A DNA stretch of 64,000 nucleotides from the NCBI RefSeq assembly GCF_000143415.4, contig NW_003314414.1, positions 91,626 through 155,625 on the forward strand, written 5' to 3'. Numbering within the stretch: position 1 is the first letter of the stretch; each line of letters starts with the position of its first letter. Positions 16,595 to 40,217 of the stretch are shown here, piece by piece. The notes beneath the pieces are model-generated. The model did no database searches and was not told the DNA's origin. It was given only the letters and a program-made list of their open reading frames with translations. The DNA is from Selaginella moellendorffii. Taxonomy: Eukaryota > Plantae > Lycopodiophyta. A program made the position numbers and the translations under genes.

Positions 16595-17025
16595 AAGCTC
16601 TATTTCGTTAAAGTGGGAATTGTCATTATCCCACTTGTAAAATAAGGTTTCCAAACCTTTATATAGTATATAAATATAACAAAATTCAACTGCATTGAGG
16701 CACATGCCATTTTATTTTAAACAAGGAAATGTCTACTCAATCACTTCTCACTGCTTCACCTCTCTCTTCTCCTTGTCATCGTCGTCCAATTTCTTTCCAT
16801 CCTTTTAATATTGGCTCAGTTGCTCCGAGTCTAGGTGGAGCCCAAGTCCCCATTCAATCTTTACTTTCCCCTTATTAATAAAACAACTTCGTAGACTTCC
16901 AATAACATGCTGTAACACTTCTAGTATAATGCAAATCCTCTCAAAGAATTGTCTTTTAATATTAATACAATGGCATGGAACCCCATGCCATAATAAGTTA
17001 CATTTTTAAATAAATACATGCCATC

Positions 17026-20000
17026 TCAGACTGTTATTTTTTGCCTCCAACGCCTATACAATAATCTTGGAATTTCATCACTCTCCACACTATCAGGATT
17101 TAAACCCAATAGTAATGCCATCTCTTCTCTAATACGTCCACGCTCATGTTCAGTGGTCGAAGAACCCATCCGGTTGAGCAGATTATGGAGATGCAGATAG
17201 TGCTTGGCTAGACAATATACATGCCATAAATGATGACTGGTGTCTGTCCGATCAAATGGCTTCTGATATACCGTTCCATCTGCCATTTGGTTGATTTCTG
17301 CAGCCACCTCCTGGACTGGCCGGTTCTCTATCACCATCGCTTCAAGCCGTTTTGCAAGGTCCCCCAGAACATACGGTTTCTTCTCCCTAGTTTCCATACT
17401 GCAAGAGATGGGGTGCACTGCATATGTGTGCGTGTTCGCTGCAGTTTTAATCGGCGAGTCATCGATGATGAGGATTTCACTTGACCTAGCAGTCCGGTTC
17501 ATCACTACAGCCTCTGCCTTGACGAAGATGGGCTTGCTACCCCTCACATGGACCATAGTCAAGCAATCCTCCTGCGTTAGGAGAAAGTCAAATGGTAATA
17601 TTACTCGCGTCTGATCGTGCATCATCTGTAGCAACGTTAATGCATTGTGGCGCATCATGGATGTCCAAACTCCCAATTGCAAATTGAACCCGGCCCTCTG
17701 TTTTAAGTGTCGCATGGTCATTATTAGATCCCGCAGTTTCTCCCGTGTGATTAATGTGAATCTGTCTCTTTTGACCAACTTGCGACCGCAGGCTTTGGAG
17801 GGTGCAGTGACATTCGAGGACGAGCCACGCTCATGGGAGAAAAGGACACCGTTCAGATCAAAAACGATACAGTACTTTCGCCGTGACTCTGAAATGAAAT
17901 GCGTTAGCATAAAAAATGGTACAAGTCAATTTTACCATCTACAATATTAGCGAATGGTGCTCCCGATGGTCGTTCAGAGGGTTTTGGTCGAGGAAACGTG
18001 AAGGGCGGAAATACTCTCCTCTGCAATGTGGGGTCAATCGCATCCGATGGCGTGTGGGCACATGCCATTTCAGCTGTAGACTCTGGTACAACTGGCTCAA
18101 CAGTGGCATGGGGTGGTTCCGATAGCGTGTGATCACACGCCATTTCAGCTGGTGCCTCCGTTGGCAAAGTGGACATGACCGAACAGGCAGCAGGGGCGGT
18201 GTAGGGAGGTTCCAACGGCGCGTAGTCAGACGATTGGGCACACGTTGGAAATGAGGATATGACCGGCTCGGCGGCTGGGGCGGCCTCATGCGGGTCCAAT
18301 GGCGCCTGGTCACCGTCAGTTGGATACGTGGACAAGATTGACTCAGTGGTATGGGCAGCATCAAGTGGAGCGTGGTCAGCTTGCTTGGCGTTGATATGGA
18401 TAGTAGCCTCCACCAGCTCTGATGACTCTTGCAGGCAAGTAGAGTCCACTGGCGGATCCATATGCATGTCCAAATATCTCCCTTCGATTGAGATGGTATC
18501 CTCCCGTGCTACTAAAAACAAACTCATTAGCACATTGAATCGACTATACTGTATTTACCATCAACTGCTATTGAGGAACTAGGACCAATATCACTTGGGC
18601 GCACTGCTGATTCTGAAGGATTGGACATACGTTTCGACCCTTGCTTGGCACTATCCTTCCTCGACACTAAAGGCTAGAGTTTGTATCTTAATTCAACTGA
18701 ATAATCTCTACTTACCATTTCTTCTGCGACCTACATGGACAATGTTAGAAATGGTAAAAGGTTAGGAATGGATGTACTATTATTTACCTGATGGTTTGTC
18801 TTGTATGACCTTCCTCTGCTGCTCTTTGGCCACCTCAGGCTGGCCATCATCGTCATCATTGTCATCGTCGTTATTGTGATCGTCACCATTGTGAGGACCA
18901 TCCAAGTCCTCTTCGTCCTCCTCTTCTTCGTCCTCCTCTTCTTCGTCCTCCTCTTCGTCCTTCTGCTCTTCCTGCTCATTATCTTTCTCTGGCTCCTCAT
19001 CCCCCTCTTGCATTTCTTCCATAGGCTGCTCAGGCTGGATTGCTTGTTTTTCCAGGACCATCTTGGAAAAATCATCTGGCCGAGTCTCCATCTCAAAATA
19101 CAAGACATCCATAGCCTGTTTTAGTGCGTGACCTAGGACCGTATCCTCACCCGACTGTCTTAACATGGTTTCTGCACGTTCTTGCACCCTTCGAAGACGA
19201 CGAGATGAGAAAAACGTGGCCTTGACTTGAAAAGCATCCCTCATCCATTGTACCTCTCCATTGAGATTGGGGAAGGGGAGTCCGCCATAGGAATCTGAGT
19301 CAGAAGGTGGTGACTGGCTCCTTTCACTCAGCCCTTGATCTGCAATGAATGGCATGAGCACACACGCCATAACCGCGAGGCATTACCTATCATCTTTTCG
19401 TTGCCCTTCTTCCTTTTCGAATCAAACGCCTCTGATCCCGACGACTGTCCAACGTGCTTTCGCTTTTTATGACCACTGTCAGTTTGAGCTTGGCTGGTGC
19501 TTGCCTGTTTTGCCTTTGAAGAAGTGTCTCCTGCAAGGAATGGCATGAGACCACACGCCATTGCAAATATAATTTGTACCTCCTTTTTTCCTATTGCTTG
19601 TCTGTTTGTCCTTCTTCGACGCGCCACCAGTGCGCTTTTCAGTCCTCGTGTCTGAATATTCACAACGATCTATAATCAAAATGGCGTGAGGCCTCACGTG
19701 ACCTTACCTTGTGCAGGTTGTGACCTCGGCCTAACATCAGTAGCTGTTAACGCCGTTTCAGCATCTGGGGGTGGCCACGCTCCTGCATACAGAGCTTGTG
19801 AGATAACATTTAAACTTAAAGTGCGTACTCACCAGGTTCGTAGAGAAGATACTGTTTTTCTTTGGCAACTGTAATTATATGCTCCATTGAAGTCACCTCT
19901 TCAATGGAGTTTGTCACCGCAACACACGGGACACCCTTGAGTAGTGCGGCTCAAAAGAATAGTCCGCCGCAGTTGTACTCGACAACGCATTTGCCCTTGG

Positions 20001-22615
20001 AGTCACCCGCTATTGCGTTGAAGACCCAGCTGAGCATTTCCCATGCTGCACCTGGAGCTTTCTTTGGATTCGAAAGCTCCATAGCCGTCTTCAGTTCCTC
20101 AGGCACGGGTAAATTGACCTCCCTCAGATCAATTCGATCGGCTTTGTTGAACGAAGCTGGGAAGTCACTCCAGTCCCACTCTGCTGCAGGACCAATAACA
20201 AGGGTGACTGTGAAGATGCGGACATTCGTCGGTATCTTCTTCTTAGCCATTATCCCATGGATCTCCCGCATCTCCTTGCCTTTCAACCGAGCCTTCACCT
20301 CGTTCAAGGCCTTCCAGAACTTGTGATAGGATTCGGAGTCGTAGATCATATAGTGGACTGAAGATTCCACCTCCGCAAGTCCCACCATTAAGTCAATGAT
20401 GGAGCTGACTTCGTCTGCATGAGTGATCTCCTCGTTTGTGAAGTCCATCACACAAAAGATGTTCTTGACCTGCTCATCTCCGCGGGAAATGATGCTCCTC
20501 CACCTTTGATCCTCATCCGAATTCACGTATACCCGGTAAGGTTCTCGATAGGCCTCTGCTGCGGGGTCGAGCTGTTTCTGAAGCCGGCGGTCGACATCCC
20601 TCTTAATGAAATTTGGATACTGATCCAACTTCTCAGCTTTACTTTTCGTGGCATCCCGCAGCAGATCGATGAACTTGGGGGCCCCCTTCACGTACTCGTC
20701 GATGTCTTCATTTGACAAGTCCAGCTCTTCCATCATCTCTTGCGTGGTGTCGATGCTCACCCTCGCCACGGCCACTTGCTCGAAGATCCAATCCTTCAAT
20801 AGCGCACGAGCTCTCAGAGTCGTGCACAAGTCCTCGTATGTCACAATATGGCCGGGAGTCATTTTGGTCTTGTTGAAGACTACCTCACCACGTAGAAGAG
20901 CATTAGCCACTGTCAAAAGGTCGTCGTCGTCTAGAGACCGCGAGAAACGCAAGGCGTTGAGCTTCAAATCATTGGGCTTCCGGCCGTCCTCCACACCCAT
21001 TGAGTTTAGCAACTCCCCGTCATGGTACCTCCTTAGCACATCTACCCATTTGTCAAAAACAACTTTTGTCGCGAGTAGAATGTTATGGATGCTGAGTGTG
21101 TCATTGACCCCCAGTGTTTTCGAGAGAAGACTCGAGAATTCCTGCAATGGAAATGGCGTGAGGCCACATGCTATGCCACATGCAACGAGGCTTACCTGCC
21201 AGGCGCTAGTTGCTAGTGCACGTCCTTGTCCTGGTTTTTGTGGCTTCTTCAGTTGAACCCAGAGCTTCCGTGTTCGTGCCAATGTCTCGTGCAGACCCGA
21301 TTTGTAGCACGTTTCTTGCTTGACATTCTGCGTGTGGGAGATGTATATGATAGATCGGAGGGGCGAGTTGCCTTTTATCAGGCGGACAACTCTTGTCTTG
21401 AAGACTTTCTTCACCTCCTCGCCCACCATAATATCCACAACTATCTGTTGCATCGCCAAGCTAGAATGCTGCCCGGAGACGGCATAGAACCGGATGTTCT
21501 GATCGTCCAACACCTTCCTATTGATCAAGTCTGGAAACCTCGTCTCGCCCTTCATTGTTCGGTAGTAGGGGATCACGTCTGCGATGTCGGGTGTTACTGG
21601 ACTTGCCAGCATCTTCTGCTTCAGTTTCTCCACCCACTCATCAGATACTAGCCTGTGGTTGTATTTGCTTTGGATCTCGATACGGCTCACGTCGATTGTA
21701 ATACTTTGTTGGAATAGTAACAAGTACTATTATCTGCGACGATTTTTGCTGCCTCTTCTTGCTCTTTCTGCTCTTTGCGGCTCTTCTTTTTGGTGGGTGT
21801 AGTGTTCGAACCCGAGGCAATGGCATCACCGAGTAGCTTCTTTTTTGGAGCAGCAGAGTCGGACGTCGGCTTGAGCTTGACCACCCTTTTCTGCTTCGGG
21901 GTAGTTTCCAGATCGACCCCCTTCCCCTTCGCTTCGCAAACTGGAGGCACTCTCAACGGCTCAATGTTGGAATATAGTTTTTGAACATCGCCGTAGGTGA
22001 GGTCCGTGGATTCCATGTGATCTTCATAGACCCGCAGCGTCTTTGAAATTGTGGGCCTCCTGGACAACCTCTCCCTAGCTCCCTCTAGGAATTCCTCATA
22101 GCCGCTGCCCCCCTCCGGGAAGCCGCTAGGATGTGCAAGGTGGATCTTGAAGGCGGACGCTGTCTCTACCACAAGTGCCAGTCCATATTCTTGCATGGAA
22201 CTGCATGGAGTGTCTGTCACTTGGATGAGGATCCCCATGCATTCTTTTCTCCCACCATCTGTGTTGTACAGCATCAGATCCTCGCCTTCCATCCCGAAAG
22301 TCCAACTGGTGAGCTCCTCCCCCTTCTCTACATCCACATTGACAGTGGCTGGAAGAAGAACGCAATTCCTCGCCTGTTCAAAAATGCACAACAATTAGAG
22401 CTGACAGATGAAAAGCTAGCAGCTGGAAATAACGTGAGGCCACACGCCATTCACCACTGCATCAGATGTCTTGAGGCTGCATCCTAAGATGGCGTGAGGC
22501 TACACGCCATCTGTAACCGGACTGCACTCGAGAGCCCAATCGGTGCATGCCAATGTTGCTACTGAATGGCATGTGGCCTCATGCCATTTTCTACTTCGTC
22601 TAAAAGACTTACCAT
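17026..22615 (-). pseudogene. Accessory gene of transposon copy A (ParB-like ... FCP1/NIF-like HAD); 1-bp frameshift near 21700
   Basis: Same exons as 34171-39775. ORFs 21687-22394 and 19951-21723 are out of frame here, whereas they are continuous in copy B. Confidence 0.78.
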
Positions 22616-24211
22616 TTGAAGCCGAATGGAGGCCGTGACAATCGAGGCTGGACTCGCTGGCGAATGTGCACTGTGTGTGCAGCGGATCGTAGCAGCAAGG
22701 CTACTCTGCCACTTACAGTTGGAGAGTGGTGCTGAAATCTCCCGGGACGCCAAGTGGGCTGCGTGTGGGTGGTGGAGTGGGCGGCGGAGTTGGCGGCGAA
22801 GTTACAAACTGGGTGTGTCTTGAAGTGGACGCCGATGCACACGAGTGCGATGCGAGCGCGAGTGTGATGCAAGCGCGAGTGGACGCCGATGCACACGAGA
22901 AACCTGTAGAGAAGTGAGCGTGATCGCGAGTGGGAGCGCGATGCGAGCGGGAGCGCGAGTGTGATGCGAGCGCGAGCGCGAGTGTGCGAGCGCGAGTACA
23001 AAGCAAAATGCAAAACCTAACCTCACACGCGCGAAATGTCACAACGGTTGGTAATCCCGCCACGTCATCATTCCTCGGACTTGGGCGCCACCATTAATTT
23101 CTGGATTGCCGCGCGCATGCAAGCACGCAAAATCCAAAAGAAATCCGCAACGTCATCATTCCTCGGACTGCATGCACGCGAAATCCAAAAGAAAGATCAT
23201 GATTGGGATATCATTTAATACCCTCGCTATATTTATACCATGCATGATTGGATATTCCAAAGCATCTTGTATTTCCAAAAATGGCAGATGTTCAGCTAAA
23301 TAAAGAAATTCTATCTGTTTCTATTTTTCTCTCAAATCAATATTATAGCGTGTGGGCTCATGCAATTTTGAACCAAAGAAACCCAAAAAACGTTGGACCC
23401 AAAATATTTTGAAAAAACCCAAAAAACCCTAAACATTTTAAACCCAAAAATCCAGGCGTCCTGTGGCGTTATTCCTTGAATGGCGTGTGGGCGCATGCCA
23501 TTTTCAGGGCCAAATGCTGAATGGAGAAAAATTCCCTTTCAGTGCAAATGCTGCAAGAGGCAGATGCCGAGCACAAAGGACTGTAACTACCTCACATGAC
23601 ACAGATAAACTTTTCTCTATTTGGCAAAGATAAACTTTATAGCGTGTGGGCTCATGCAATTTTGAACCCAAAAAATGCACCAAAAAATTCTCGGCGTCAT
23701 CTGGCATTATCTCTTGAATGGCGTGGGGCCGCATGCCATTTTCAGGGGCACATAGGAGTATATTCCTAGGATATTATGACACGCACGAAATTTTTTTGAG
23801 TTTTCTAGAGATCCAACCGTTAGATCGCAACTAGATTTTACAGAATGGTATACAATGTCTTTCTTGATGACCCTGCAAAGAAGCATCTCAATCGGACACC
23901 ACATGAGACCACACGAGCCTTACAATGTTTCAGGGGCATTTGCCATAGAGCCGACCGTTATTTTGCTCCAAGATTTCACAGTTTGGTGTGCATTGACCTT
24001 TCCATCGAAACTGCAAAGGGACATCACAATCAGATGCGGGATCACAAGAAACTAACTTCACTAACTCTGGTTTCACCAAGATCTACGTAAGGAGTTATGA
24101 AATGAAAGGACCCTCTCTATTGAAATGTGTTTATGGTCCTAGGGGCATTGTGACATATCAAAGGATTTTGCATCAAGTTCTGTATTTGCATGTTTATCAA
24201 GCTACTGAATT

Positions 24212-24246
24212 GCTAAACCCTAAACCCTAAACCCTAAACCCTAAAC
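24212..24246 (+). repeat. Interstitial plant telomeric repeat (CCCTAAA)4+ in copy A
   Basis: ctaaaccctaaaccctaaaccctaaaccctaaac read directly. Confidence 0.9.
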
Positions 24247-25551
24247 ATGTGGCAAATGCTGCGTGAAGAAAGATGCCATTTCTGGGCAAATGCTGTAAGA
24301 GGCAGATGCCGAGCAGATGTATCTCAGGCTAGCGAAGGGGACGAACGAAAGCTAGCTATAAACATGACGGGATGCAAATAGATTACTAGGCTGGTCCTGC
24401 GAAAATCAAAAACCATAATTGAAAACATTGAAAATGCAAAAAGAAAGGTTTATAATATTTTTGAATTTTAGGCAACCAAAGGAATGTAAGTAGGGCATGT
24501 GTTTGTAAGTTTAAAAATGCCTCAACCACTTAAATTCCCAAGTAAATAAAGCTGTTTCTATTTTTGGTACAGGTAAACTTTATAGCGTGTGGGCTCATGC
24601 AATTTTGAACCCAAAAATGCACCAAAAAATGCTCGACTAGCATTATTCTTTGAATGGCTTGTGGCCTTATGTCGAGCATTATTCTTTGAATGGCGTGTGG
24701 CCTTATATTGCCATAAATGGACGTACACACACAGCGTAATTATTCCTTTACACGGCGAATAATCTTGGCGCGGATCGCTGACATGGCATGGCAAAGTTCG
24801 AATCACTGACATGGCACAGCTGGATCGAGGCAAGGACATGATGTGACAAAGTTCAACCTACGACAGCAAAGTCTAGAAGCTACTCAGTTTGAAATTTGTC
24901 AGAGGAATCATAAGATCTGGTTTGTCAGAGGATTTGATGTGACGTTCAAGCGTGTGTTATTTTTGAATTCTCGAACTCATTCCTAGGTCTATCATTTTTG
25001 TGCGCCGTGTTCTTGGTTCCGCTGAGCGCAGTGAACGCTGCTTGTGTAAGCGGCGTTGTGGGCTGTGGTTTATGCGTCTACGAGCGGTTGCGGCATTGCG
25101 AGCGCCATTGCGAGCGGCAGTTTATGCGAGTGGCAGTTTGTGCGAGCGGCGCTACGAGCAGTTGCGGTGTTGCGAGCGGCGCTACGAGTAGTTGCGGTGT
25201 TGCGAGCGGCACTGTCTTTGGTGTGGCTACCGCTTCCTCTTGATATTCGGCACTTGTGCTTCCTGGTATGTTCACCATGGAATGGCTTAGAACCACATTT
25301 AGAAATGGCATGAGGCCACATGCCATCTTGGGCCCTTGCAATTTCATGGCTAGCGTATTGTCATGTATGTTTTTACTTGCCTGCAGCTGTGTGTATATCA
25401 AGATGGCATGAGGCCTCATGCCAATTTTGTGAATGCAAATGTTCACGTGGGTGTCAATAGCATGTTTGAATAATGGCATGTGGCCTCATGCTATTGAGGT
25501 TGTTTGGTATGTTATGATTTAGGCCATTCTCCAATCATTTTTTGTATGGTG

Positions 25552-25728
25552 NNNNNNNNNNNNNNNNNNNNNNNNNNNNNNNNNNNNNNNNNNNNNNNNN
25601 NNNNNNNNNNNNNNNNNNNNNNNNNNNNNNNNNNNNNNNNNNNNNNNNNNNNNNNNNNNNNNNNNNNNNNNNNNNNNNNNNNNNNNNNNNNNNNNNNNNN
25701 NNNNNNNNNNNNNNNNNNNNNNNNNNNN
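25552..25728. other. Assembly gap (N run)
   Basis: Ns; the flanks correspond to ~31349 and ~29692 of copy B, so ~1.65 kb is probably unresolved. Confidence 0.95.
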
Positions 25729-26374
25729 TAAGGTCTCTGCAAAGTGCGCAGACTGAGCTGAACGGCCAACCCTTGCATAAGGCCCTTGTCGATCGAACCC
25801 CATACAGGGTTCAGCTGGAGGAGGAGCAAAGGCTTGCAGTATCGCGTGGGGCCCCATGCCATCCCAGTGAATATGTTGGCCGTCAGATTGTAGGGTTATC
25901 ACGTGAGGCCTCATGCCATTCCGACGAGGCTGGTCGCCCGGTGAATGCACAGCCTCATCCAAACGAAGCAGAATCTCAAGGAAGTTCTTGCGGCCGATGT
26001 GGCCTTCCACCCCATCTTCTGCTCCAAACAGACAATGCTGGCAGTGAGAACAAAAACATGTACGTCTTCGCGTACTTGGCGATGCTTGTTGCCAAAGGCA
26101 TATTTGAAACGGTTACACTTGGCTTTCTCATGGTTGGGCACACTCATGAAGACGTCGATGCCATGTTCAGTCACCTGGCAGAGTCCCTCCGGCGATCCAA
26201 TGTCCTCACCCTCCCACAACTCTACGATGAATTCCAAAATTGCATCAAAGGCACTGTTGAAGCTGCACTTCTGACAGAGGTTCCAGACTTTAAGGGGTTT
26301 GTAAGAGGCTACATCAGGGACGGATCCGAAACGCTGATTGGCCACTCCAAGCCTCTTCAGTTTCATTTCAGCAT
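25729..26374 (+). pseudogene. Transposase fragment of copy A
   Basis: LLLQTDNAGSENKNMYVFAYLAMLVAKGIFETVTLGFLMVGHTHEDVDAMFS; truncated at 26374. Confidence 0.85.
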
Positions 26375-26624
26375 CCACCACTGCCGATATTCTCGCTTGT
26401 TGCCCATCAAAGCGACAGTGGTTCCGTGCCTCCCAAAGTGCCTGCAGTCCTGTTGCCCTCCAAATGGACCAGCGCTCTTGGCCCAACGCCTCCCAGATGG
26501 ACATCCCAACTTCAGCCCCTGTCACGTCCCACCGGACTCGCATGTTCCATCGGTGCCGTCCGTAGCAGCGAATACGCCTCCAAGCTGGACCAATGGCTGG
26601 GCCTCTAGCTCCCTCAAACCAGTG
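26375..26624 (-). pseudogene. Displaced 3' piece of LINE-2 ORF2
   Basis: Reads HWFEGARGP...LQALWEARNHCRF and continues ...GDILH at 61595 in frame. Shares the 4-bp CACT junction. Confidence 0.85.
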
Positions 26625-26648
26625 ATGCTCTATTTCGTTAAAGTGGGA
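26625..26648 (+). repeat. Left TIR
   Basis: ATGCTCTATTTCGTTAAAGTGGGA. Confidence 0.9.
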
Positions 26649-27284
26649 TTTATTTAGTAAAATGGGACTAGGTACAAATTTTCAAGTATTTGAAAATGAC
26701 GTGAAATTATATGTTTTTTGTCCAGGGGCTAGACATATCTGGGGCATGGTGACTAGCGCGGTGACCTTATGTCCAGACTGAGTCCATCTAGTTGTATAAT
26801 AAATCTCATTGTCAAGGTGAACAAGCCGAATCTGAAGCTAAAGAAGAGCGATGGCATGCGCGCACACACTATTTGTTTGTTCATTGAGCGTGTGGTGAGC
26901 TTTCCAAGATGAACATCATTCCTATTAGCCAGACATATAACTTAATGGTGAGAACATTTAGATATTATTCAATGTTATCTTTTTCTAACGAATCTAATTG
27001 TGAAGGTGTAGCAAGAGGCATTGCTAGTCTGGAGAAGTCATTTAACTCATTTGACCCTTAGTGTATTTTCATGAAACTAAATAACATTCATATTATTAAG
27101 GAATTTCTCTAGTACCTTTTTTTTACGACATAGAGGCTTGCATTTCTTTCAAAGGTGATTTAGTAAAAGGCCTGAGGGCACATGCCATTCTATTTCTTAG
27201 ACCGGTATTAAGATATACTAGTGCAAAGGGAAAAAGGTATTTGGTGATCAAGTAAATGGCATGAGGGCACACGCCATTATAAGC

Positions 27285-27542
27285 CTAAGCGCTAGTGGAC
27301 ACCTCCTTTTTGGTACTCTCAGCGGTACTATCATCCTTCTCCGGGTCAGTTGTTTTGCTTTGGATTGTTGTCTCTGACGTTACTGGGGCGTTCTCGATAG
27401 TTGTTAATGTTGCCGTTTGTTCAGAAAAATGATCACCTGGAGTATAGTACGGGGAGTTTGGAAGACTTATATATTCTACATCTTCACCTATCTCCTTCTC
27501 CATCTCCTTTTCTGCCTCACTTACAGATTTTGTGCTTGCCAT
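27285..27542 (-). CDS. Possible small acidic ORF or exon within the transposon left arm
   Basis: MASTKSVSEAEKEMEKEIGEDVEY...; low complexity, no recognisable domain. Confidence 0.3.
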   Translation of the reverse strand: MASTKSVSEAEKEMEKEIGEDVEYISLPNSPYYTPGDHFSEQTATLTTIENAPVTSETTIQSKTTDPEKDDSTAESTKKEVSTSA

Positions 27543-28253
27543 GAGAACGCTCTTCACCCTAAAATATGGAGTTCGTTGTGTTATAAAAGGAAACCAACAC
27601 ACTCGCTGCAAGGGAATGATGGTACATAAAGCACGTAAGCCCACAATATGGGTTTATATGCCATTAATATGGGCCACACGCCATATTATTAGATTTATGC
27701 ACGTGTGATTGGTAAATGCATATGTCACATCATCTTTGTTTTACCTCACACACTATATCAGGCCTAATGAACCATATCACATGTGCGCACATGCTATATA
27801 TATGGAGAAGTATTATGCAAGGATAGAAATTCAATGCATGATTGTGGAGAGCAATGGCATGAAGCCACATGCTAAATAACATTTTAGAGAAAGAATTAAA
27901 ATAAAAACATGCAAACAGTACTAAGTGGACCAAGACTTAGAAGTGCACAATTGAATGAGGTATTTCTAATAAATATTTCACTCACCTCATATAGGAATGG
28001 TTACCACTCTCAAATGGTGTATCGCCTCATGCCATCACCTCGCAATTTGTTATAACAATCCGATGAATTCATATTCGGCTTGTTCACCTTGAACTTTAAG
28101 TAAGATTTGCTAGAACAACTAAGAATTTATACTTGTTATTTGTATCATCTCACCTAGGAATGGCGTAAGGCCACATGCCATCACGCCTCCTCTGATTCAG
28201 ATTCGGATTGTTCACCTTGAAATAAAATACATTAGAAACTTAGTAAAGGAATA

Positions 28254-31200
28254 TTAATGAATCTCACCTTGAACCCGGGTTATGAATGCTCTTGCTGCAT
28301 CTCTTGCATGGTCTGGCAAGGTGATGGTGGCACTCTGCTTCCGCATCCAACCATGCACAACATTATCCACCGATATGCTCATGCTGGGATCCCTTGGATT
28401 CAGCACCCATCTCTTTTCTAGGCAATCCTTTGTATATCCGGAACTTGGCTTGAACCACTCCACAGTTACATTGAAGGAGTTAGTTTCCGTGTCCTCCTCT
28501 GCATCAGTGATGCAGCGCCCCACCCATATCATTTGTTTTTTATTACTGGGTCTGACAAGCACGACCATTCCTTTGCAGACCTGTACTGAATTGAATGCTG
28601 AATCCGGCTTCTTGTTCCTCAGCCCACAATAGTGATCCTCAACATCGTTATCTGTCACTGCATTTCCAGAGGACATTGTTCCGCTACTATCTGGTGCTCT
28701 GGGTTCTAGCCAAAAGGACTCTTCCAATTCTTCATATACAACCGGCCCATTTTGGATAGCAGATATAATCTTCTCCCAGTATTCGAGCAAAAGCTTGCAC
28801 CTCTGAAAATAGGATTCTCCACCAAACACCAACCCCCTCTTCCAGAAGGCAATATGCTGTCTAATCCCGGCCACTATACTTTCCTGGTCTTTGAGTCCAT
28901 CCGGGTGCATCGGCCGTGGGGAACCCTGAGGAATCATAGGTTCCCCAGTTATGGGATCTCTCTTGAAGAGTTCAATGCCGTCCACTGGCAGCCACACTGT
29001 GTCCCATTCTCTCATCTTGTACCTCATCACTGGAGCACCGTCACACATGCTGAAATGAAACTGAAGAGGCTTGGAGTGGCCAATCAGCGTTTCGGATCCG
29101 TCCCTGATGTAGCCTCTTACAAACCCCTTAAAGTCTGGAACCTCTGTCACAAGTGCAGCTTCAACAGTGCCTTTGATGCAATTTTGGAATTCATCGTAGA
29201 GTTGTGGGAGGGTGAGGACATTGGATCGCCGGAGGGACTCTGCCAGGTGACTGAACATGGCATCGACGTCTTCATGAGTGTGCCCAACCATGAGAAAGCC
29301 AAGTGTAACCGTTTCAAATATGCTTTAGGCAACAAGCATCGCCAAGTACGCAAAGACGTACATGTTTTTGTTCTCACTGCCAGCATTGTCTGTTTGGAGC
29401 AGAAGATGGGGTGGAAGGCCACATCGGCCGCAAGAACTTCCTTGAGATTCTGCTTCGTTTGGATGAGGCTGTGCATTCACCGAGCGACCAGCCTCGTCGG
29501 AATGGCATGAGGCCTCACGTGATAACCCTACAATCTGACGGCCAACATATTCACTGGGATGGCATGGGGCCCCACGCGATACTGCAAGCCTTTGCTCCTC
29601 CTCCAGCTGAACCCTGTATGGGGTTCGATCGACAAGGGCCTTATGCAAGGGTTGGCCGTTCAGCTCAGTCTGCGCACTTTGCAGAGACCTTAAGTGTTTT
29701 GCTAGGGACGCAATCATCATGTTTGCACCCCTGCCACCCCATAGAGTTACAAAGAAGTTCCCATAGTTCTGGGCACCATGCCCATGAGCGATTATGCCAA
29801 ACAGAGACACAGCCAGCTACATGGATGAAGAGATTGCCTTGGGGGCAGGATTGAGTCGAGGTAAGCACGTCTTTTTCTGGTCCATTTTGTCGTGGATGAT
29901 GCAGAGGTAAGAGTCAGGTCTCTCCATGGAGAGAATCCTGTTATGATAATATGCAGTCCTGCAGCTTCTCTGCTCAATGTTGTGGTCGAGCCGCCTTCTA
30001 ACCAACGTCTCTCGCTCTTGAGCGCTGCAAGAATTCTTCGACAAAGCCATTTTGATAGCAGTGCACTCGTCACACTTTGAAAAGCTGGAGTACTTTCCTA
30101 TACTCACATCCCTGAACCTGTTGCTCCACAATCTACTAAATCTAGATTGGCTCAGCTTCCTGTAGCCATTACTCTGGAGTTCCCGATTCACATCTTCCAA
30201 TATGGCCCCCTTGGTATACATGGAAGGGAGAACTCGTTGGGTGTCTCGTGTTCCATCTTCCAAGAGGCGGGTTTTATGTGGTTGCTGCTCGCTACATGTC
30301 TCAACAAACCTCTTGAAGATTGCCTCTCCATATACAACATGACCCCTGGTTTTGTGCGTACTGTCGTTCCCATGGACTGCCTGTTGAACCCTTTGTTCCT
30401 CGAACTCAGTTTTGATTCTGTAGAATGTGTTTCGAGGGACTCCATAAATGATTCTCCATGCCTTCATGCAGACCAAACCCCTCTGGAAGACCATGCCCCC
30501 CACCTGATGTTCTGAAGCATCAACAGATGACCGTAATGCCTCATACACAAAATTGCGAGCTGCCTTCCAGGACAATGTCTTGTATCTTGCTCTCTCCTCT
30601 TCAATAGCATCCCAATCAGCATGTTGACAGCACCTCCTCTTGCAACAAGCAACTGTCGAGACCATTCGAACCTCCATCGCCATTTTCTGCCTTTTCGGTT
30701 CGTTGCTCAGATCCCTTTGGCTGCGCTTTAGGAAGGTGTACTTTCTTTTCCCATGAAGAGATGTTCTGTCATCAGTTGTAGTGGTGTTTGATTGTGAATC
30801 CTTCACATTCTCAAACACTAAGTGCCTCAATTTCCACCGCACAATGCTTCCAATAGTCAGACTGTTTTCTTCTGTGTCAACAACCTCTAAAATCGCAACT
30901 CCAATATCATCCCAGCCCAATTCTTGATTAGCAACCGCATCTCTTGGATCGACAACTGTGGCTAAGCCCTCAGCTACCACCTCCCCCTCGGGGTTGTTTA
31001 GAAACACTTTTGCCTGAATCTATGTAGCACGGTTCTTAAGATCCACGGAGGGAACATGCATCGCACTTGCGCTGTCCCCAACATCTGCTTTCTTCTGAAG
31101 ATTTTTCAAGGCAACAACAACATTTACCCCGACGACCATCTCTCCTCGTTCAATAGCGACCACATTCCCATCGAAGACAGTCTCTACTGATACAGCAGCA

Positions 31201-31323
31201 TTGCCTTCCCCAAGCCTTTCACAGTGTATAACAAAGTTCCGATCCATAGACACAAGGGTCCCTTTTGCAACTCTCTTCCCACCATTCAAAATGTAAACCT
31301 TTTCCCCAACCCTGAAGGCTATT
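28254..31323 (-). pseudogene. DDD/E transposase (Sola-like, DUF7869-type) with three in-frame stops
   Basis: ORFs 31020-31289, 29817-31007, 29325-29810 and 28254-29291 share one frame, separated by TAG, TAG and TAA. Motifs FSKCDEC...H, IIHDKMDQ, LQTDNAGSENKN, GHTHEDVDAMFS. Copy A has AAA where B has TAA. Confidence 0.85.
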
Positions 31324-31617
31324 CTGAAAGTGCAGAAAAGAAGTTAAGACCATACAAAAAATGATTGGAGAATGGCCTAAATCATAACATACCAGACAAC
31401 CCTCATAGCATGAGGCCTCATGCCATCTTGATATACACACAGCTGCAGGCAAGTAAAAACATACATGACAATACGCTAGCCATGAAATTGCAAGGGCCCA
31501 AGATGGCATGTGGCCTCATGCCATTTCTAAATGTGGTTCTAAGCCATTCCATGGTGAACATACCAGGAAGCACAAGTGCCGAATATCAAGAGGAAGCGGT
31601 AGCCACACCAAAGACAG

Positions 31618-31750
31618 TGCCGCTCGCAACACTGCAACTACTCGTAGCGCCGCTCGCAACACCGCAACTGCTCGTAGTGCCGCTCGCACAAACTGCCACT
31701 CGCATAAACTGCCGCTCGCAATGGCGCTCGCAATGCCGCAACCGCTCGTA
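31618..31750 (+). repeat. CpG-rich ~30-bp tandem repeat (GCCGCTCGCAACAC...) upstream of the transposase
   Basis: Repeated gccgctcgca units; mirrored at ~25080-25210. Confidence 0.7.
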
Positions 31751-32546
31751 GACGCATAAACCACAGCCCACAACGCCGCTTACACAAGCAGCGCTCACTG
31801 CGCTCAGCGGAACCAAGAACACGGCGCACAAAAATGATAGACCTAGGAATGAGTTCGAGAATTCAAAAATAACACACGCTTGAACGTCACATCAAATCCT
31901 CTGACAAACCAGATCTTATGATTCCTCTGACAAATTTCAAACTGAGTAGCTTCTAGACTTTGCTGTCGGAGGTTGAACTTTGTCACATCATGTCCTTGCC
32001 TCGATCCAGCTGTGCCATGTCAGTGATTCGAACTTTGCCATGCCATGTCAGCGATCCGCGCCAAGATTATTCGCCGTGTAAAGGAATAATTACGCTGTGT
32101 GTGTATGTCCATTTATGGCAATATAAGGCCACACGCCATTCAAAGAATAATGCTAGTCGAGCATTTTTTGGTGCATTTTTGGGTTCAAAATTGCATGAGC
32201 CCACACGCTATAAAGTTTACCTGTACCAAAAATAGAAACAGCTTTATTTACTTGGGAATTTAAGTGGTTGAGGCATTTTTAAACTTACAAACACATGCCC
32301 TACTTACATTCCTTTGGTTGCCTAAAATTCAAAAATATTATAAACCTTTCCTTTTGCATTTTCAATGTTTTCAATTATGGTTTTTGATTTTCGTAGGACC
32401 AGCCTAGTAATCTATTTGCATCCCGTCATGTTTATAGCTAGCTTTCATTTGTCCCCTTCGCTAGCCTGAGATACATCTGCTCGGCATTTGCCTCTTACAG
32501 CATTTGCCCAGAAAGGGCATCTTTCTTCACGCAGCATTTGCCACAT

Positions 32547-32573
32547 GTTTAGGGTTTAGGGTTTAGGGTTTAG
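32547..32573 (+). repeat. Interstitial telomeric repeat (TTTAGGG)3+ in copy B
   Basis: gtttagggtttagggtttagggtttag read directly. Confidence 0.9.
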
Positions 32574-33789
32574 CAATTCAGTAGCTTGATAAACATGCAA
32601 ATACAGAACTTGATGCAAAATCCTTTGATATGTCACAATGCCCCTAGGACCATAAACACATTTCAATAGAGAGGGTCCTTTCATTTCATAACTCCTTACG
32701 TAGATCTTGGTGAAACCAGAGTTAGTGAAGTTAGTTTCTTGTGATCCCGCATCTGATTGTGATGTCCCTTTGCAGTTTCGATGGAAAGGTCAATGCACAC
32801 CAAACTGTAAAATCTTGGAGCAAAATAACGGTCGGATCTATGGCAAATGCCCCTGAAACATTGTAAGGCTCGTGTGGTCTCATGTGGTGTCCGATCGAGA
32901 TGCTTCTTTGCAGGGTCATCAAGAAAGACATTGTATACCATTCTGTAAAATCTAGTTGTGATCTAATGGTTGGATCTCCAGAAAACTCAAAAAAATCTCG
33001 TGCGTGTCAGAATATTCTAGGAATATACTCCTATGTGCCCCTGAAAATGGCATGCGGCCCCACGCCATTCAAGAGATAATGCCAGATGACGCCGAGAATT
33101 TTTTGGTGCATTTTTTGGGTTCAAAATTGCATGAGCCCACACGCTATAAAGTTTATCTTTGCCAAATAGAGAAAAGTTTATCTGTGTCATGTGAGGTAGT
33201 TACAGTCCTTTGTGCTCGGCATCTGCCTCTTGCAGCATTTGCACTGAAAGGGAATTTTTCTCCATTCAGCATTTGGCCCTGAAAATGGCATGCGCCCACA
33301 CGCCATTCAAGGAATAACGCCACAGGACGCCTGGATTTTTGGGTTTAAAATGTTTAGGGTTTTTTGGGTTTTTTCAAAATATTTTGGGTCCAACGTTTTT
33401 TGGGTTTCTTTGGTTCAAAATTGCATGAGCCCACACGCTATAATATTGATTTGAGAGAAAAATAGAAACAGATAGAATTTCTTTATTTAGCTGAACATCT
33501 GCCATTTTTGGAAATACAAGATGCTTTGGAATATCCAATCATGCATGGTATAAATATAGCGAGGGTATTAAATGATATCCCAATCATGATCTTTCTTTTG
33601 GATTTCGCGTGCATGCAGTCCGAGGAATGATGACGTTGCGGATTTCTTTTGGATTTTGCGTGCTTGCATGCGCGCGGCAATCCAGAAATTAATGGTGGCG
33701 CCCAAGTCCGAGGAATGATGACGTGGCGGGATTACCAACCGTTGTGACATTTTGCGCGTGTGAGGTTAGGTTTTGCATTTTGCTTTATA

Positions 33790-33960
33790 CTCGCGCTCGC
33801 ACACTCGCGCTCGCGCTCGCATCACACTCGCGCTCCCGCTCGCATCGCGCTCCCACTCGCGATCACGCTCACTTCTCTACAGGTTTCTCGTGTGCATCGG
33901 CGTCCACTCGCGCTTGCATCACACTCGCGCTCACATCGCGCTCGTGTGCATCGGCGTCCA
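33790..33960 (+). repeat. CpG-rich low-complexity repeat (CTCGCG/CACACTCGCG) in the accessory-gene leader
   Basis: cgcgctcgcacactcgcgctcgcgctcgcatcacactcgcg...; mirrored at ~22830-22997. Confidence 0.7.
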
Positions 33961-34170
33961 CTTCAAGACACACCCAGTTTGTAACTTCGCCGCCAACTCT
34001 GCCACCCACTCCACCACCCACACGCAGCCCACTTGGCGTCTCGGGAGATTTCAGCACCACTCTCCAACTGTAAGTGGCAGAGTAGCCTTGCTGCTACGAT
34101 CCGCTGCACACACAGTGCACATTCGCCAGCGAGTCCGGCCTCGATTGTCACGGCCTCCATTCGGCTTCAA

Positions 34171-37100
34171 ATGGTAAGTCTTTTAGACGAAGTAGAAAAT
34201 GGCATGAGGCCACATGCCATTCAGTAGCAACATTGGCATGCACCGATTGGGCTCTCGAGTGCAGTCCGGTTACAGATGGCGTGTAGCCTCACGCCATCTT
34301 AGGATGCAGCCTCAAGACATCTGATGCAGTGGTGAATGGCGTGTGGCCTCACGTTATTTCCAGCTGCTAGCTTTTCATCTGTCAGCTCTAATTGTTGTGC
34401 ATTTCTGAACAGGCGAGGAATTGCGTTCTTCTTCCAGCCACTGTCAATGTGGATGCAGAGAAGGGGGAGGAGCTCACCAGTTGGACTTTCGGGATGGAAG
34501 GCGAGGATCTGATGCTGTACAACACAGATGGTGGGAGAAAAGAATGCATGGGGATCCTCATCCAAGTGACAGACACTCCATGCAGTTCCATGCAAGAATA
34601 TGGACTGGCACTTGTGGTAGAGACAGCGTCCGCCTTCAAGATCCACCTTGCACATCCTAGCGGCTTCCCGGAGGGGGGCAGCGGCTATGAGGAATTCCTA
34701 GAGGGAGCTAGGGAGAGGTTGTCCAGGAGGCCCACAATTTCAAAGACGCTGCGGGTCTATGAAGATCACATGGAATCCACGGACCTCACCTACGGCGATG
34801 TTCAAAAACTATATTCCAACATTGAGCCGTTGAGAGTGCCTCCAGTTCGCGAAGCGAAGGGGAAGGGGGTCGATCTGGAAACTACCCCGAAGCTGAAAAG
34901 GGTGGTCAAGCTCAAGCCGACGTCCGACTCTGCTGCTCCAAAAAAGAAGCTACTCGGTGATGCCATTGCCTCGGGTTCGAACACTACACCCACCAAAAAG
35001 AAGAGCCGCAAAGAGCAGAAAGAGCAAGAAGAGGCAGCAAAAATCGTCGCAGATAATAGTACTTGTTACTATTCCAACAAAGTATATACAATCGACGTGA
35101 GCCGTATCGAGATCCAAAGCAAATACAACCACAGGCTAGTATCTGATGAGTGGGTGGAGAAACTGAAGCAGAAGATGCTGGCAAGTCCAGTAACACCCGA
35201 CATCACAAACGTGATCCCCTACTACCGAACAATGAAGGGCGAGACGAGGTTTCCAGACTTGATCAATAGGAAGGTGTTGGACGATCAGAACATCCGGTTC
35301 TATGCCGTCTCCGGGCAGCATTCTAGCTTGGCGATGCAACAGATAGTTGTGGATATTATGGTGGGCGAGGAGGTGAAGAAAGTCTTCAAGACAAGAGTTG
35401 TCCGCCTGATAAAAGGCAACTCGCCCCTCCGATCTATCATATACATCTCCCACACGCAGAATGTCAAGCAAGAAACGTGCTACAAATCGGGTCTGCACGA
35501 GACATTGGCACGAACACGGAAGCTCTGGGTTCAACTGAAGAAGCCACAAAAACCAGGACAAGCACGTGCACTAGCAACTAGCGCCTGGCAGGTAAGCCTC
35601 GTTGCATGTGGCATAGCATGTGGCCTCACGCCATTTCCATTGCAGGAATTCTCGAGTCTTCTCTCGAAAACACTGGGGGTCAATAACACACTCAGCATCC
35701 ATAACATTCTACTCGCGACAAAAGTTGTTTTTGACAAATGGGTAGATGTGCTAAGGAGGTACCATGACGGGGAGTTGCTAAACTCAATGGGTGTGGAGGA
35801 CGGCCGGAAGCCCAATGATTTGAAGCTCAACGCCTTGCGTTTCTCGCGGTCTCTAGACGACGACGACCTTCTGACAGTGGCTAATGCTCTTCTACGTGGT
35901 GAGGTAGTCTTCAACAAGACCAAAATGACTCCCGGCCATATTGTGACATACGAGGACTTGTGCACGACTCTGAGAGCTCGTGCGCTATTGAAGGATTGGA
36001 TCTTCGAGCAAGTGGCCGTGGCGAGGGTGAGCATCGACACCACGCAAGAGATGATGGAAGAGCTGGACTTGTCAAATGAAGACATCGACGAGTACGTGAA
36101 GGGGGCCCCCAAGTTCATCGATCTGCTGCGGGATGCCACGAAAAGTAAAGCTGAGAAGTTGGATCAGTATCCAAATTTCATTAAGAGGGATGTCGACCGC
36201 CGGCTTCAGAAACAGCTCGACCCCGCAGCAGAGGCCTATCGAGAACCTTACCGGGTATACGTGAATTCGGATGAGGATCAAAGGTGGAGGAGCATCGTTT
36301 CCCGCGGAGATGAGCAGGTCAAGAACATCTTTTGTGTGATGGACTTCACAAACGAGGAGATCACTCATGCAGACGAAGTCAGCTCCATCATTGACTTAAT
36401 GGTGGGACTTGCGGAGGTGGAATCTTCAGTCCACTATATGATCTACGACTCCGAATCCTATCACAAGTTCTGGAAGGCCTTGAACGAGGTGAAGGCTCGG
36501 TTGAAAGGCAAGGAGATGTGGGAGATCCATGGGATAATGGCTAAGAAGAAGATACCGACGAATGTCCGCATCTTCACACTCGCCCTTGTTATTGGTCCTG
36601 CAGCAGAGTGGGACTGGAGTGACTTCCCAGCTTCGTTCAACAAAGCCGATCGAATTGATCTGAGGGAGGTCAATTTACCCGTGCCTGAGGAACTGAAGAC
36701 GGCTATGGAGCTTTCGAATCCAAAGAAAGCTCCAGGTGCAGCATGGGAAATGCTCAGCTGGGTCTTCAACGCAATAGCGGGTGACTCCAAGGGCAAATGC
36801 GTTGTCGAGTACAACTGCGGCGGACTATTCTTTCGAGCCACACTACTCAAGGGTGTCCCGTGTGTTGCGGTGACAAACTCCATTGAAGAGGTGACTTCAA
36901 TGGTGCATATAATTACAGTTGCCAAAGAAAAACAGTATCTTCTCTACGAACCTGGTGAGTACGCACTTTAAGTTTAAATGTTATCTCACAAGCTCTGTAT
37001 GCAGGAGCGTGGCCACCCCCAGATGCTGAAACGGCGTTAACAGCTACTGATGTTAGGCCGAGGTCACAACCTGCACAAGGTAAGGTCACGTGAGGCCTCA

Positions 37101-39775
37101 CGCCATTTTGATTATAGATCGTTGTGAATATTCAGACACGAGGACTGAAAAGCGCACTGGTGGCGCGTCGAAGAAGGACAAACAGACAAGCAATAGGAAA
37201 AAAGGAGGTACAAATTATATTTGCAATGGCGTGTGGTCTCATGCCATTCCTTGCAGGAGACACTTCTTCAAAGGCAAAACAGGCAAGCACCAGCCAAGCT
37301 CAAACTGACAGTGGTCATAAAAAGCGAAAGCACGTTGGACAGTCGTCGGGATCAGAGGCGTTTGATTCGAAAAGGAAGAAGGGCAACGAAAAGGTGATAG
37401 GTAATGCCTCGCGGTTATGGCGTGTGTGCTCATGCCATTCATTGCAGATCAAGGGCTGAGTGAAAGGAGCCAGTCACCACCTTCTGACTCAGATTCCTAT
37501 GGCGGACTCCCCTTCCCCAATCTCAATGGAGAGGTACAATGGATGAGGGATGCTTTTCAAGTTAGGGCCACGTTTTTCTCATCTCGTCGTCTTCGAAGGG
37601 TGCAAGAACGTGCAGAAACCATGTTAAGACAGTCGGGTGAGGATACGGTCCTAGGTCACGCACTAAAACAGGCTATGGATGTCTTGTATTTTGAGATGGA
37701 GACTCGGCCAGATGATTTTCCAAGATGGTCCTGGAAAAACAAGCAATCCAGCCTAAGCAGCCTATGGAAGAAATGCAAGAGGGGGATGAGGAGCCAGAGA
37801 AAGATAATGAGCAGGAAGAGCAGAAGGACGAAGAGGAGGACAAAGAAGAGGAGGACGAAGAAGAGGAGGACGAAGAAGAGGAGGACGAAGAGGACTTGGA
37901 TGGTCCTCACAATGGTGACGATCACAATAACGACGATGACGATGATGACGACGATGGCCAGCCTGAGGTGGCCAAAGAGCAGCGGAGGAAGGTCATACAA
38001 GACAAACCATCAGGTAAATAATAGTACATCCATTCCTAACCTTTTACCATTTCTAACATTGTCCATGTAGGTCGCAGAAGAAATGGTAAGTAGAGATTAT
38101 TCAGTTGAATTAAGATACAAACTCTAGCCTTTAGTGTCGAGGAAGGATAGTGCCAAGCAAGGGTCGAAACATATGTCCAATCCTTCAGAATCAGCAGTGC
38201 GCCCAAGTGATATCGGTCCTAGTTCCTCAATAGCAGTTGATGGTAAATACAGTATAGTCGATTCAATGTGCTAATGAGTTTGTTTTTAGTAGCACGGGAG
38301 GATACCATCTCAATCGAAGGGAGATATTTGGACATGCATATGGATCCGCCAGTGGACTCTACTTGCCTGCAAGAGTCATCAGAGCTGGTGGAGGCTACTA
38401 TCCATATCAACGCCAAGCAAGCTGACCACGCTCCACTTGATGCTGCCCATACCACTGAGTCAATCTTGTCCACGTATCCAACTGACGGTGACCAGGCGCC
38501 ATTGGACCCGCATGAGGCCGCCCCAGCCGCCGAGCCGATCGTATCCTCATTTCCAACGTGTGCCCAATCGTCTGACTACGCGCCGTTGGAACCTCCCTAC
38601 ACCGCCCCTGCTGCCTGTTCGGTCATGTCCACTTTGCCAACGGAGGCACCAGCTGAAATGGCGTGTGATCACACGCCATCGGAACCACCCCATGCCACTG
38701 TTGAGCCAGTTGTACCAGAGTCTACAGCTGAAATGGCATGTGCCCACACGCCATCGGATGCGATTGACCCCACATTGCAGAGGAGAGTATTTCCGCCCTT
38801 CACGTTTCCTCGACCAAAACCCTCTGAACGACCATCGGGAGCACCATTCGCTAATATTGTAGATGGTAAAATTGACTTGTACCATTTTTTATGCTGACGC
38901 ATTTCATTTCAGAATCACGGCGAAAGTACTGTATCGTTTTTGATCTGAACGGTGTCCTTTTCTCCCATGAGCGTGGCTCGTCCTCGAATGTCACTGCACC
39001 CTCCAAAGCCTGCGGTCGCAAGTTGGTCAAAAGAGACAGATTCACATTAATCACACGGGAGAAACTGCGGGATCTAATAATGACCATGCGACACTTAAAA
39101 CAGAGGGCCGGGTTCAATTTGCAATTGGGAGTTTGGACATCCATGATGCGCCACAATGCATTAACGTTGCTACAGATGATGCACGATCAGACGCGAGTAA
39201 TATTACCATTTGACTTTCTCCTAACGCAGGAGGATTGCTTGACTATGGTCCATGTGAGGGGTAGCAAGCCCATCTTCGTCAAGGCAGAGGCTGTAGTGAT
39301 GAACCGGACTGCTAGGTCAAGTGAAATCCTCATCATCGATGACTCGCCGATTAAAACTGCAGCGAACACGCACACATATGCAGTGCACCCCATCTCTTGC
39401 AGTATGGAAACTAGGGAGAAGAAACCGTATGTTCTGGGGGACCTTGCAAAACGGCTTGAAGCGATGGTGATAGAGAACCGGCCAGTCCAGGAGGTGGCTG
39501 CAGAAATCAACCAAATGGCAGATGGAATGGTATATCAGAAGCCATTTGATTGGACAGACACCAGTCATCATTTATGGCATGTATATTGTCTAGCCAAGCA
39601 CTATCCGCATCTCCATAATCTGCTCAACCGGATGGGTTCTTCGACCACTGAACATGAGCGTGGACGTATTAAAGAAGAGATGGCATTACTATTGGGTTTA
39701 AATCCTGATAGTGTGGAGAGTGATGAAATTCCAAGATTATTGTATAGGCGTTGGAGGCAAAAAATAACAGTCTGA
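34171..39775 (+). CDS. Multi-exon transposon accessory protein: ParB/Srx-like domain, possible decayed MTase-like segment, acidic linker, FCP1/NIF-type HAD domain (1-bp frameshift near 37719 in this copy)
   Basis: ParB-like segment IDVSRIEI..YNHRLVSDEWVEKLKQKM...FYAVSGQHSSLA. HAD motifs VFDLNGVL, VWTS, IIDDSPIK. GT-AG introns join the ORF pieces in frame. Confidence 0.72.
38913..39775 (+). CDS. Last exon: FCP1/NIF-family HAD phosphatase-like domain
   Basis: CIVFDLNGVL (motif I variant), GVWTSMM (motif II), ILIIDDSPIK (motif IV). Open in all three copies (17026-17910, 62038-62922). Confidence 0.78.
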
Positions 39776-40193
39776 GATGGCATGTATTTATTTAAAAATG
39801 TAACTTATTATGGCATGGGGTTCCATGCCATTGTATTAATATTAAAAGACAATTCTTTGAGAGGATTTGCATTATACTAGAAGTGTTACAGCATGTTATT
39901 GGAAGTCTACGAAGTTGTTTTATTAATAAGGGGAAAGTAAAGATTGAATGGGGACTTGGGCTCCACCTAGACTCGGAGCAACTGAGCCAATATTAAAAGG
40001 ATGGAAAGAAATTGGACGACGATGACAAGGAGAAGAGAGAGGTGAAGCAGTGGCAGGGGGAGGAGAAGTGATTGAGTAGACATTTCCTTGTTTAAAATAA
40101 AATGGCATGTGCCTCAATGCAGTTGAATTTTGTTATATTTATATACTATATAAAGGTTTGGAAACCTTATTTTACAAGTGGGATAATGACAAT

Positions 40194-40217
40194 TCCCACT
40201 TTAACGAAATATAGCTT
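40194..40217 (-). repeat. Right TIR
   Basis: TCCCACTTTAACGAAATATAGCTT; reverse complement of the left TIR with 2 mismatches. Confidence 0.9.

Follow-up and report, generated by a model that had tools for sequence, protein, structure and literature searches.

Why should a single transposon carry the same 22-bp palindrome 27 times along its length? The question is raised by a 64,000-nt stretch of the genome of the lycophyte Selaginella moellendorffii (NCBI RefSeq assembly GCF_000143415.4, contig NW_003314414.1, positions 91,626 to 155,625), referred to here as the window and numbered from its first nucleotide. It contains a 13.6-kb Sola-like DNA transposon, copy B (26625..40217), as well as two other copies of the same element, A and C. 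Our tentative answer is that the palindromes are binding sites for a dimer encoded by the element, most likely its accessory protein with a predicted ParB-like part. Coated in this way, the element would be marked as self or kept unsilenced. That the binder is encoded by the element at all, be it the accessory protein or the transposase, we consider probable, and of these two candidates the accessory protein is narrowly ahead. We infer protein binding, the dimeric state and the identity of the protein from the sequences, and the anti-silencing outcome by analogy with known systems.

A 22-bp palindrome found only in the element copies of the window

We scanned the window for ATGGCRTG-N6-CAYGCCAT, allowing up to three arm mismatches and using 300 dinucleotide shuffles as the null. 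The 52 sites recovered were all in the element (27 in copy B, 21 in copy A and 4 in copy C), and none was found in the 37,976 bp of long interspersed nuclear element (LINE), long terminal repeat (LTR) and other DNA outside its copies, as the original prediction had claimed for the other elements. Copy B carried 11 exact sites, 24 with at most two mismatches and 27 with at most three, compared with shuffle means of 0, 0.02 and 0.26 (maximum 3), which rules out a chance accumulation. All 21 start coordinates previously listed as good copies bear the motif, with 0 to 3 arm mismatches. Among the seven listed as degenerate, five (26851, 32190, 33126, 33420 and 40102) fall within three mismatches, while those at ~27665 and 32118 are half-sites made of the right arm and the centre, and one site at 27776 (three mismatches) had been overlooked.

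The consensus in copy B is ATGGCRTG-WGGCCW-CAYGCCAT. Conservation of the arms and of the 6-bp spacer length was borne out, since 6 was the sole enriched length among spacers of 0 to 15, apart from a signal at 11 that comes from these very sites read with an offset. The spacer sequence, however, does not vary freely as had been proposed: position 10 is G in 24 of the 27 sites and position 13 is C in 25, conserved like the arms, with A or T prevailing at positions 9 and 14. The motif is thus a full 22-bp palindrome with a loose A/T at positions 9 and 14, and the free-spacer reading was rejected. Its half-sites vary independently of each other at R6/Y17, where complementary bases were seen in 11 of 26 sites with 12 expected by chance; the 9/14 pair is complementary in 8 of 27. 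CG occurs at R6/Y17 in 21 of 54 half-sites and the remainder are nearly all CA/TG, a mixture that fits either the decay of CpG or a position at which both bases are tolerated. Between copies A and B, one change was observed in 374 site bases (about 2.7 expected), which is too few to judge conservation.

Palindromes are depleted from coding DNA

The sites span copy B from end to end with a largest gap of 1.8 kb, so that, as first suggested, they are not restricted to the ends. Seven lie in the left arm (starting at 26851, 27167, 27256, 27776, 27854, 28014 and 28160; 26851..28181), which also holds the half-site near 27663-27665, and two in the right arm (39810 and 40102; 39810..40123). Another five, in two duplicated groups and accompanied by the half-site at 32118, are located between the divergent transposase and accessory genes (32190, 33047, 33126, 33285 and 33420; 32190..33441). 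Predicted introns contain nine sites: two in the 5' intron of the transposase gene (31405 and 31503; 31405..31524), three in accessory intron 1 at 34174-34412 (34199, 34276 and 34336; 34199..34357), and one in each of four tiny accessory introns of 54 nt (35592-35645; site 35613..35634), 56 nt (37080-37135; site 37085..37106), 49 nt (37208-37256; site 37226..37247) and 47 nt (37401-37447; site 37417..37438). The last four are coding, two in a transposase loop that is variable in length and sequence among homologs (29502 and 29559; 29502..29580) and two, within a 75-bp duplication, in a Pro-rich linker of the accessory protein (38658 and 38733; 38658..38754).

Coding DNA accounts for 58.7% of copy B yet holds only 4 of the 27 sites (p = 3.5e-6), the 23 non-coding ones being divided between introns (9) and the arms or the space between genes (14), and four of the nine tiny predicted introns carry a site where 0.53 would be expected (p = 0.002); both p-values assume independent sites, and three small groups are duplicates. 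This avoidance of coding DNA and the placement in introns, together with the different palindromes of related elements described below, extend the original prediction.

When the flanks of the sites were compared, 7 of 351 pairs reached at least 20/40 identity, two of them right at this threshold. Since the flanks are unrelated except in three small duplicated groups, the sites appear to have been gained or kept individually. Direct repeats of at least 3 bp were found at 11 of the 27 sites at scattered offsets, with 31% expected at random. The earlier concern that the copies might be a separate miniature inverted-repeat transposable element (MITE) could be set aside, given the mostly unrelated flanks and the lack of a consistent target duplication.

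The number of palindrome units (31405-31426 and 32118-32160) varies between copies of the element. An extra site is present in copy A and in runs X4, X5, X8 and X16, and copy A has a 36-bp duplication. In run X1, minor DNA variants lack all or part of the sites at 37417 and 37085.

Related elements carry palindromes of their own

We scanned metagenome contigs for relatives and analyzed the best 80 of 132 transposase loci, representing 43 families. The motif of copy B was enriched in none of these 80 loci. A family was considered to have its own palindrome when at least three copies of an exact palindrome with 6-bp arms were present, and 129 Markov sequences served as nulls. Own palindromes were found in 8 of 43 families, compared with 0 of 129 nulls and 0 of 10 pieces of the window. 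They differ between transposase families and track them: loci L001, L002, L005 and L006, with 56-77% transposase identity, share one palindrome, and L004 (45-49%) has another. Where the palindromes are dispersed, alike flank pairs were rare (1/36 in L004, 0/10 in L043 and 0/28 in L023, the last having 5-bp arms and not being counted among the eight families).

Introns are again involved in two of these relatives. All eight good copies of the L023 palindrome, GAGAC-nn-GTCTC, lie in three predicted transposase introns (113-326, 906-956 and 1700-1752; one of them GC-AG), and the sole internal copy in L043 is also in a predicted transposase intron. Removing the predicted introns of L023 and L043 restores the transposase family motifs. 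Two weaker matches in L023 (2715 and 2807) are outside its three introns.

Loci L003, L008 and L071 have an intact-looking transposase and non-coding DNA without such a repeat. L071 is a 5.5-kb DUF7869 element (95-2371 on the minus strand, 2720-4993 on the plus strand) with 98-bp perfect inverted ends and no palindromes, and its divergent 759-codon open reading frame (ORF) matches no known family. The distant DUF7869 element L062 (1-485, minus strand; 2290-4213, plus strand) has the same arrangement of two genes at a great distance from plants. No relative was found in viral contigs, and the sole match of a phage search had an E-value of 4.

Two candidate binding proteins

The transposase ORF of copy B (28254..31322, minus strand, about 1,020 codons) matches Pfam DUF7869 (E = 5.6e-24 and 6.2e-11), and no MULE domain was found in this search. 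Alignment with proteins P0001-P0032 supports the assignment, and over its full length the ORF is 27-41% identical to proteins of 1,050-1,130 residues. Three aspartate motifs conserved in the family alignment (HDKMD, QxDN and GHTHEDxD) may form a DDD triad, and two basic helix-turn-helix-like stretches were recognized by eye. A 5' intron (31324..31563, minus strand, GT-AG by eye) is predicted, with two palindromes in copy B and three in copy A. The ORF of copy B has three in-frame stops and no start codon; it is open in contigs of 3-4 other runs, and therefore the transposon family is probably young.

On the opposite strand of this giant element, and divergent from the transposase gene, is the accessory gene (34171..39775, plus strand), with 11 predicted exons and about 1,640 codons for ParB-like, helical, methyltransferase-like, acidic/Pro-rich and NIF/HAD parts. 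Intron prediction on the plus strand (34174-38912) gave ten GT-AG introns that keep the frame, nine of them of 47-57 nt, a length known from a small number of plant lineages, lycophytes among them. From the third exon onward, copy A reads as one 1,238-codon frame with a single internal stop, and copy B has a one-base frameshift not present in other runs. The 18 codons of the predicted 54-nt intron are missing from homologs and the homolog P0044 links the middle region to the NIF domain (E = 4.9e-6 in the accessory protein, Pfam); one protein of about 1,640 residues is therefore supported. Splicing was seen in no run, and the contigs of two presumed-RNA runs, unspliced over the predicted introns, may be DNA and are therefore uninformative on this point. 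Unnamed Streptophyta clusters of 813 and 1,673 residues in Atlas are at 0.97 and 0.93 to the accessory protein. Word-based protein searches with this protein gave no matches; a full protein scan gave 10, of which 9 were kept and P0036 was dropped as spurious (RTX repeats).

An xGQH motif in the N-terminal domain of the accessory protein is conserved in four homologs. By Atlas features, the protein is at 0.78-0.79 to ParB_N/N6_N4_Mtase clusters. The homolog P0043 (27% identical, corresponding to 35052-35591) has ParB_N and DndB models among its nearest, with template modelling (TM) scores of 0.43-0.52 that are below the naming bar. The third domain has mostly S-adenosylmethionine (SAM)-dependent methyltransferases as its top fold matches, with a best Z of 7.2 and none at Z of at least 8, in a part of the model where the predicted local distance difference test (pLDDT) is 40-55. 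These matches include MboIIA (Z 6.0, root-mean-square deviation 2.8, 111 aligned), PvuII and RsrI, and Foldseek gave no match at E ≤ 0.001 in PDB for this domain. The mean pLDDT of the accessory protein model is 54, and a fold predicted from the single sequence had a pLDDT of 40 and was of no use. The fold searches listed no ParB chain, their lists being filled by the methyltransferase-like part. Both predicted folds are best taken as leads. N4/N6 methyltransferases usually have the catalytic motif D/N/S-PP-Y/F (DPPY/SPPY-type). At the strand of the fold where it is expected, a position assigned by eye, the five aligned sequences keep D alone, so the methyltransferase-like part seems more likely to read or recruit than to methylate.

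By features, the nearest named Atlas clusters of P0043 are DUF3723 (0.94-0.95), described as a conserved cargo gene of Starships (10.1101/2021.12.13.472469), which hints at a ParB-like module common to unrelated giant transposons.

Proposed binding sites and alternative explanations

A long, symmetric and family-specific motif, spread over the body of the element and kept out of conserved coding DNA, is what the site of an element-encoded dimer is expected to look like. We propose that such a dimer, with the ParB-like accessory protein as the candidate, docks on the palindromes and coats the element along its whole length, and that this coat would mark the element copies as self or keep them unsilenced.

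Several observations weigh against this proposal. Most families (35 of 43) are below the palindrome threshold, and several of the eight above it (L010, L020, the L017 group and L078) owe their copies to tandem units. The accessory gene was seen in none of the palindrome-bearing relative contigs, each of just 3-5.6 kb, and L062 has a divergent ParB-like gene (profile E = 5e-4) with no repeated palindrome in its 4.9 kb. Searches of Pfam, NCBIfam, PHROGs and PDB sequences gave no significant ParB match to the accessory protein; the Atlas rows that relate it to ParB are "under the bar", our own model has a pLDDT below 50 in the ParB-like part, and the helix-turn-helix-like stretch of the protein is, by eye, acidic, unlike the two basic ones of the transposase.

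A serious rival, only slightly less probable, is that the palindromes are bound by the transposase, which would use a second DNA-binding surface for them. They would then extend the principle of subterminal repeats over the whole element and aid complex assembly or activation. The transposase is the sole gene seen in all palindrome-bearing relatives, the palindromes follow transposase similarity, L010 has palindrome arrays on both sides of its transposase ORF, and the ParB-like gene without palindromes in L062 also favours the transposase. A weak resemblance to Transposase_23 was seen in the N-terminal domain (E = 0.0055, below the cut-off). The AtMu1 transposase alone activates its family, but it and TnpA of Spm have their motifs and effects at the termini only (10.64898/2026.08.24.746577). 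The terminal inverted repeats (TIRs) of copy B, in contrast, contain no palindrome, the nearest sites being 226 and 94 bp inside the ends, and the intact-looking transposases of L003, L008 and L071, like those of most families, do without palindromes.

We find it unlikely that the palindrome acts as an RNA hairpin, with an 8-bp stem and a loop of 6 nt, to regulate how the element's transcripts are spliced or how stable they are. Such a role would suit the nine intronic sites, three of which end 9-11 nt before the acceptor, and the intronic location of all good copies in L023; moreover, 11 of the 13 genic sites could pair at 6/17 on the transcribed strand (7 Watson-Crick, 4 G-U). However, the 14 sites in the arms or between genes do not fit, the loop is symmetric and strand-neutral, and the arms are fixed in sequence, their sole two-state position varying independently on both sides. 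The preference of the original prediction for a dimer site over a hairpin is thus still the best reading, given the chance-level pairing at R6/Y17 and the symmetric centre, although it is unproven in view of the genic sites that could pair, and its argument from a variable spacer was incorrect on points of detail.

Less likely still, the sites could be a by-product of very small insertions, of footprints or of a short motif spread by repeated gene conversion, persisting where harmless. Neutral insertions would also be depleted from coding DNA, and the number of sites differs between copies through small duplications and deletions. On the other hand, the direct repeats are scattered and show no consistent target duplication, no site was found outside the element, and the coding sites are in frame, in loops of normal family length. 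The least probable explanation is that the motif is the site of a host transcription or chromatin factor and that the element has collected such sites. This would suit the clusters near both gene starts, but neither the LINEs nor the LTR elements of the window contain the motif, and a different palindrome per transposase family better fits an element-encoded partner.

Comparison with known systems

In bacterial ParB/parS systems, dimers of the ParB fold bind repeated palindromic sites, and ParB has a GxxR nucleotide motif. The situation proposed here is similar, with a predicted ParB fold, but concerns a eukaryotic transposon without ParA, and the arginine of GxxR is S/T in all five aligned accessory sequences.

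In algae, giant Sola elements with ParB-methyltransferase genes are known from earlier work, as are ParB genes with inverted repeats next to them. Sola1-1_Ec32 of Ectocarpus is likewise a giant TIR element with a 4-bp target-site duplication (TSD) and an accessory gene opposite to the transposase strand, and its ParB-like and N4/N6 methyltransferase accessory protein was proposed to bind and modify its own element (PMC12477816). It is 21.5 kb long, with AACCG termini, a 282-bp TIR and a 1,104-aa accessory protein (PMC12477816), whereas the Selaginella element has 13.6 kb, a 27-bp TIR, an added NIF/HAD part, a degenerate catalytic motif and 27 dispersed palindromes. The main text on Sola1-1_Ec32 (PMC12477816) does not contain the word "palindrom", and that element may carry such sites too. 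The giant Plavaka elements of Bostrychia are also DNA transposons with a ParB-domain accessory gene, PAG3, for which adjoining inverted repeats were proposed as binding sites (10.1101/2025.02.11.637652). They differ by their EnSpm transposase, the fusion of ParB to a 2-oxoglutarate (2OG) oxygenase and the tandem arrangement of the repeats beside PAG3 (10.1101/2025.02.11.637652), while the sites studied here have unrelated flanks and are scattered over introns and both arms. ParB-fused methyltransferases have been described in green algae and chytrids as well (PMC4738411).

Among plant transposons, VANC of the Arabidopsis VANDAL elements binds to motifs that lie in the introns and intergenic DNA of the element encoding it. 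These motifs are, as here, family-specific and found in non-coding DNA, including that of the termini, across the whole element (PMC5735166). VANDALs are Mutator elements with 9-bp non-palindromic motifs built as tandem repeats, and binding and demethylation were shown for them (PMC5735166). No VANC similarity of the accessory protein turned up, and no search aimed at VANC was made. Spm TnpA and the AtMu1 transposase are element-encoded binders of family-specific motifs that activate cognate copies (10.64898/2026.08.24.746577); here, binding is proposed, and the body-wide spread of the sites would resemble VANC more than either of them. We did not find dispersed, intron-placed and family-specific palindromes in Sola/DUF7869 elements in the literature searched, most subscription papers, the 2009 Sola paper and Repbase being outside its coverage.

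Two recent algal genome papers propose that ParB accessory proteins bind and modify their own transposons, with no test or site sequence in the parts that treat these elements (PMC12477816, 10.1101/2025.02.11.637652). The element described here offers a sharply defined candidate site of 22 bp and two proteins that might bind it, as well as relatives whose sites differ, making the proposal directly testable. If it is true, VANC would be joined by a second system of sequence-specific self-recognition, and targeted epigenome work might gain orthogonal pairs of protein and site. A broader and more doubtful generalization is that giant DNA transposons of plants, algae and possibly animals and fungi have adopted a parS/ParB-like address system, independent of VANC, with family palindromes in introns and spacers and a ParB-derived accessory protein, by predicted features close to DUF3723 of Starship, that would coat the element as a shield against silencing.

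The element, its copies and its ends

Copy B is 98.5-99% identical to copies A and C and is bounded by a left TIR of 27 bp (26625..26651, plus strand) with three mismatches to the right TIR (40191..40217, minus strand). Contigs of other runs start at 26625-26627 or end at 40215, with differing flanks. The element interrupts a LINE, and a 4-bp target duplication, CACT, is found beside the left end of copy B (26621..26624, minus strand), with its partner at 61592-61595 beside the right end of copy C; the empty site with a single CACT is present in contigs of runs X8 and X4, for this one insertion only. DUF7869, which we take to be Sola, was not met in the literature searched. Sola is defined by a 4-bp TSD, TIRs of 11-1124 bp and a DDD enzyme (PMC10741241), and the TSD and TIR found here agree with this definition. 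The element was named Sola-like from its TSD, its TIR and its putative DDD triad.

Copy C (61596..64000, minus strand), inverted and extending past the end of the window, has four sites. Its right end and the left end of copy B are the two ends of one LINE insertion, as seen from the shared CACT and the empty site. The stretch between B and C (40218-61595, with 26375-26624) appears inverted, through recombination between inverted copies or misassembly. Copy A (16595..26374, minus strand), with 21 sites, is also inverted. It has a gap of 177 N (within 25552-26374) in place of an expected 1.7 kb or so of element, and it breaks off at 26374 against a LINE remnant, likely because of an assembly problem or a deletion. 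The left arm of copy B includes an 85-codon acidic ORF (27285-27542, minus strand), read by eye and excluded from the coding fraction. A short TTTAGGG array, resembling plant telomere repeats, is also present in the element (32549-32575 and 24255-24290), with 3-4 units that vary between copies.

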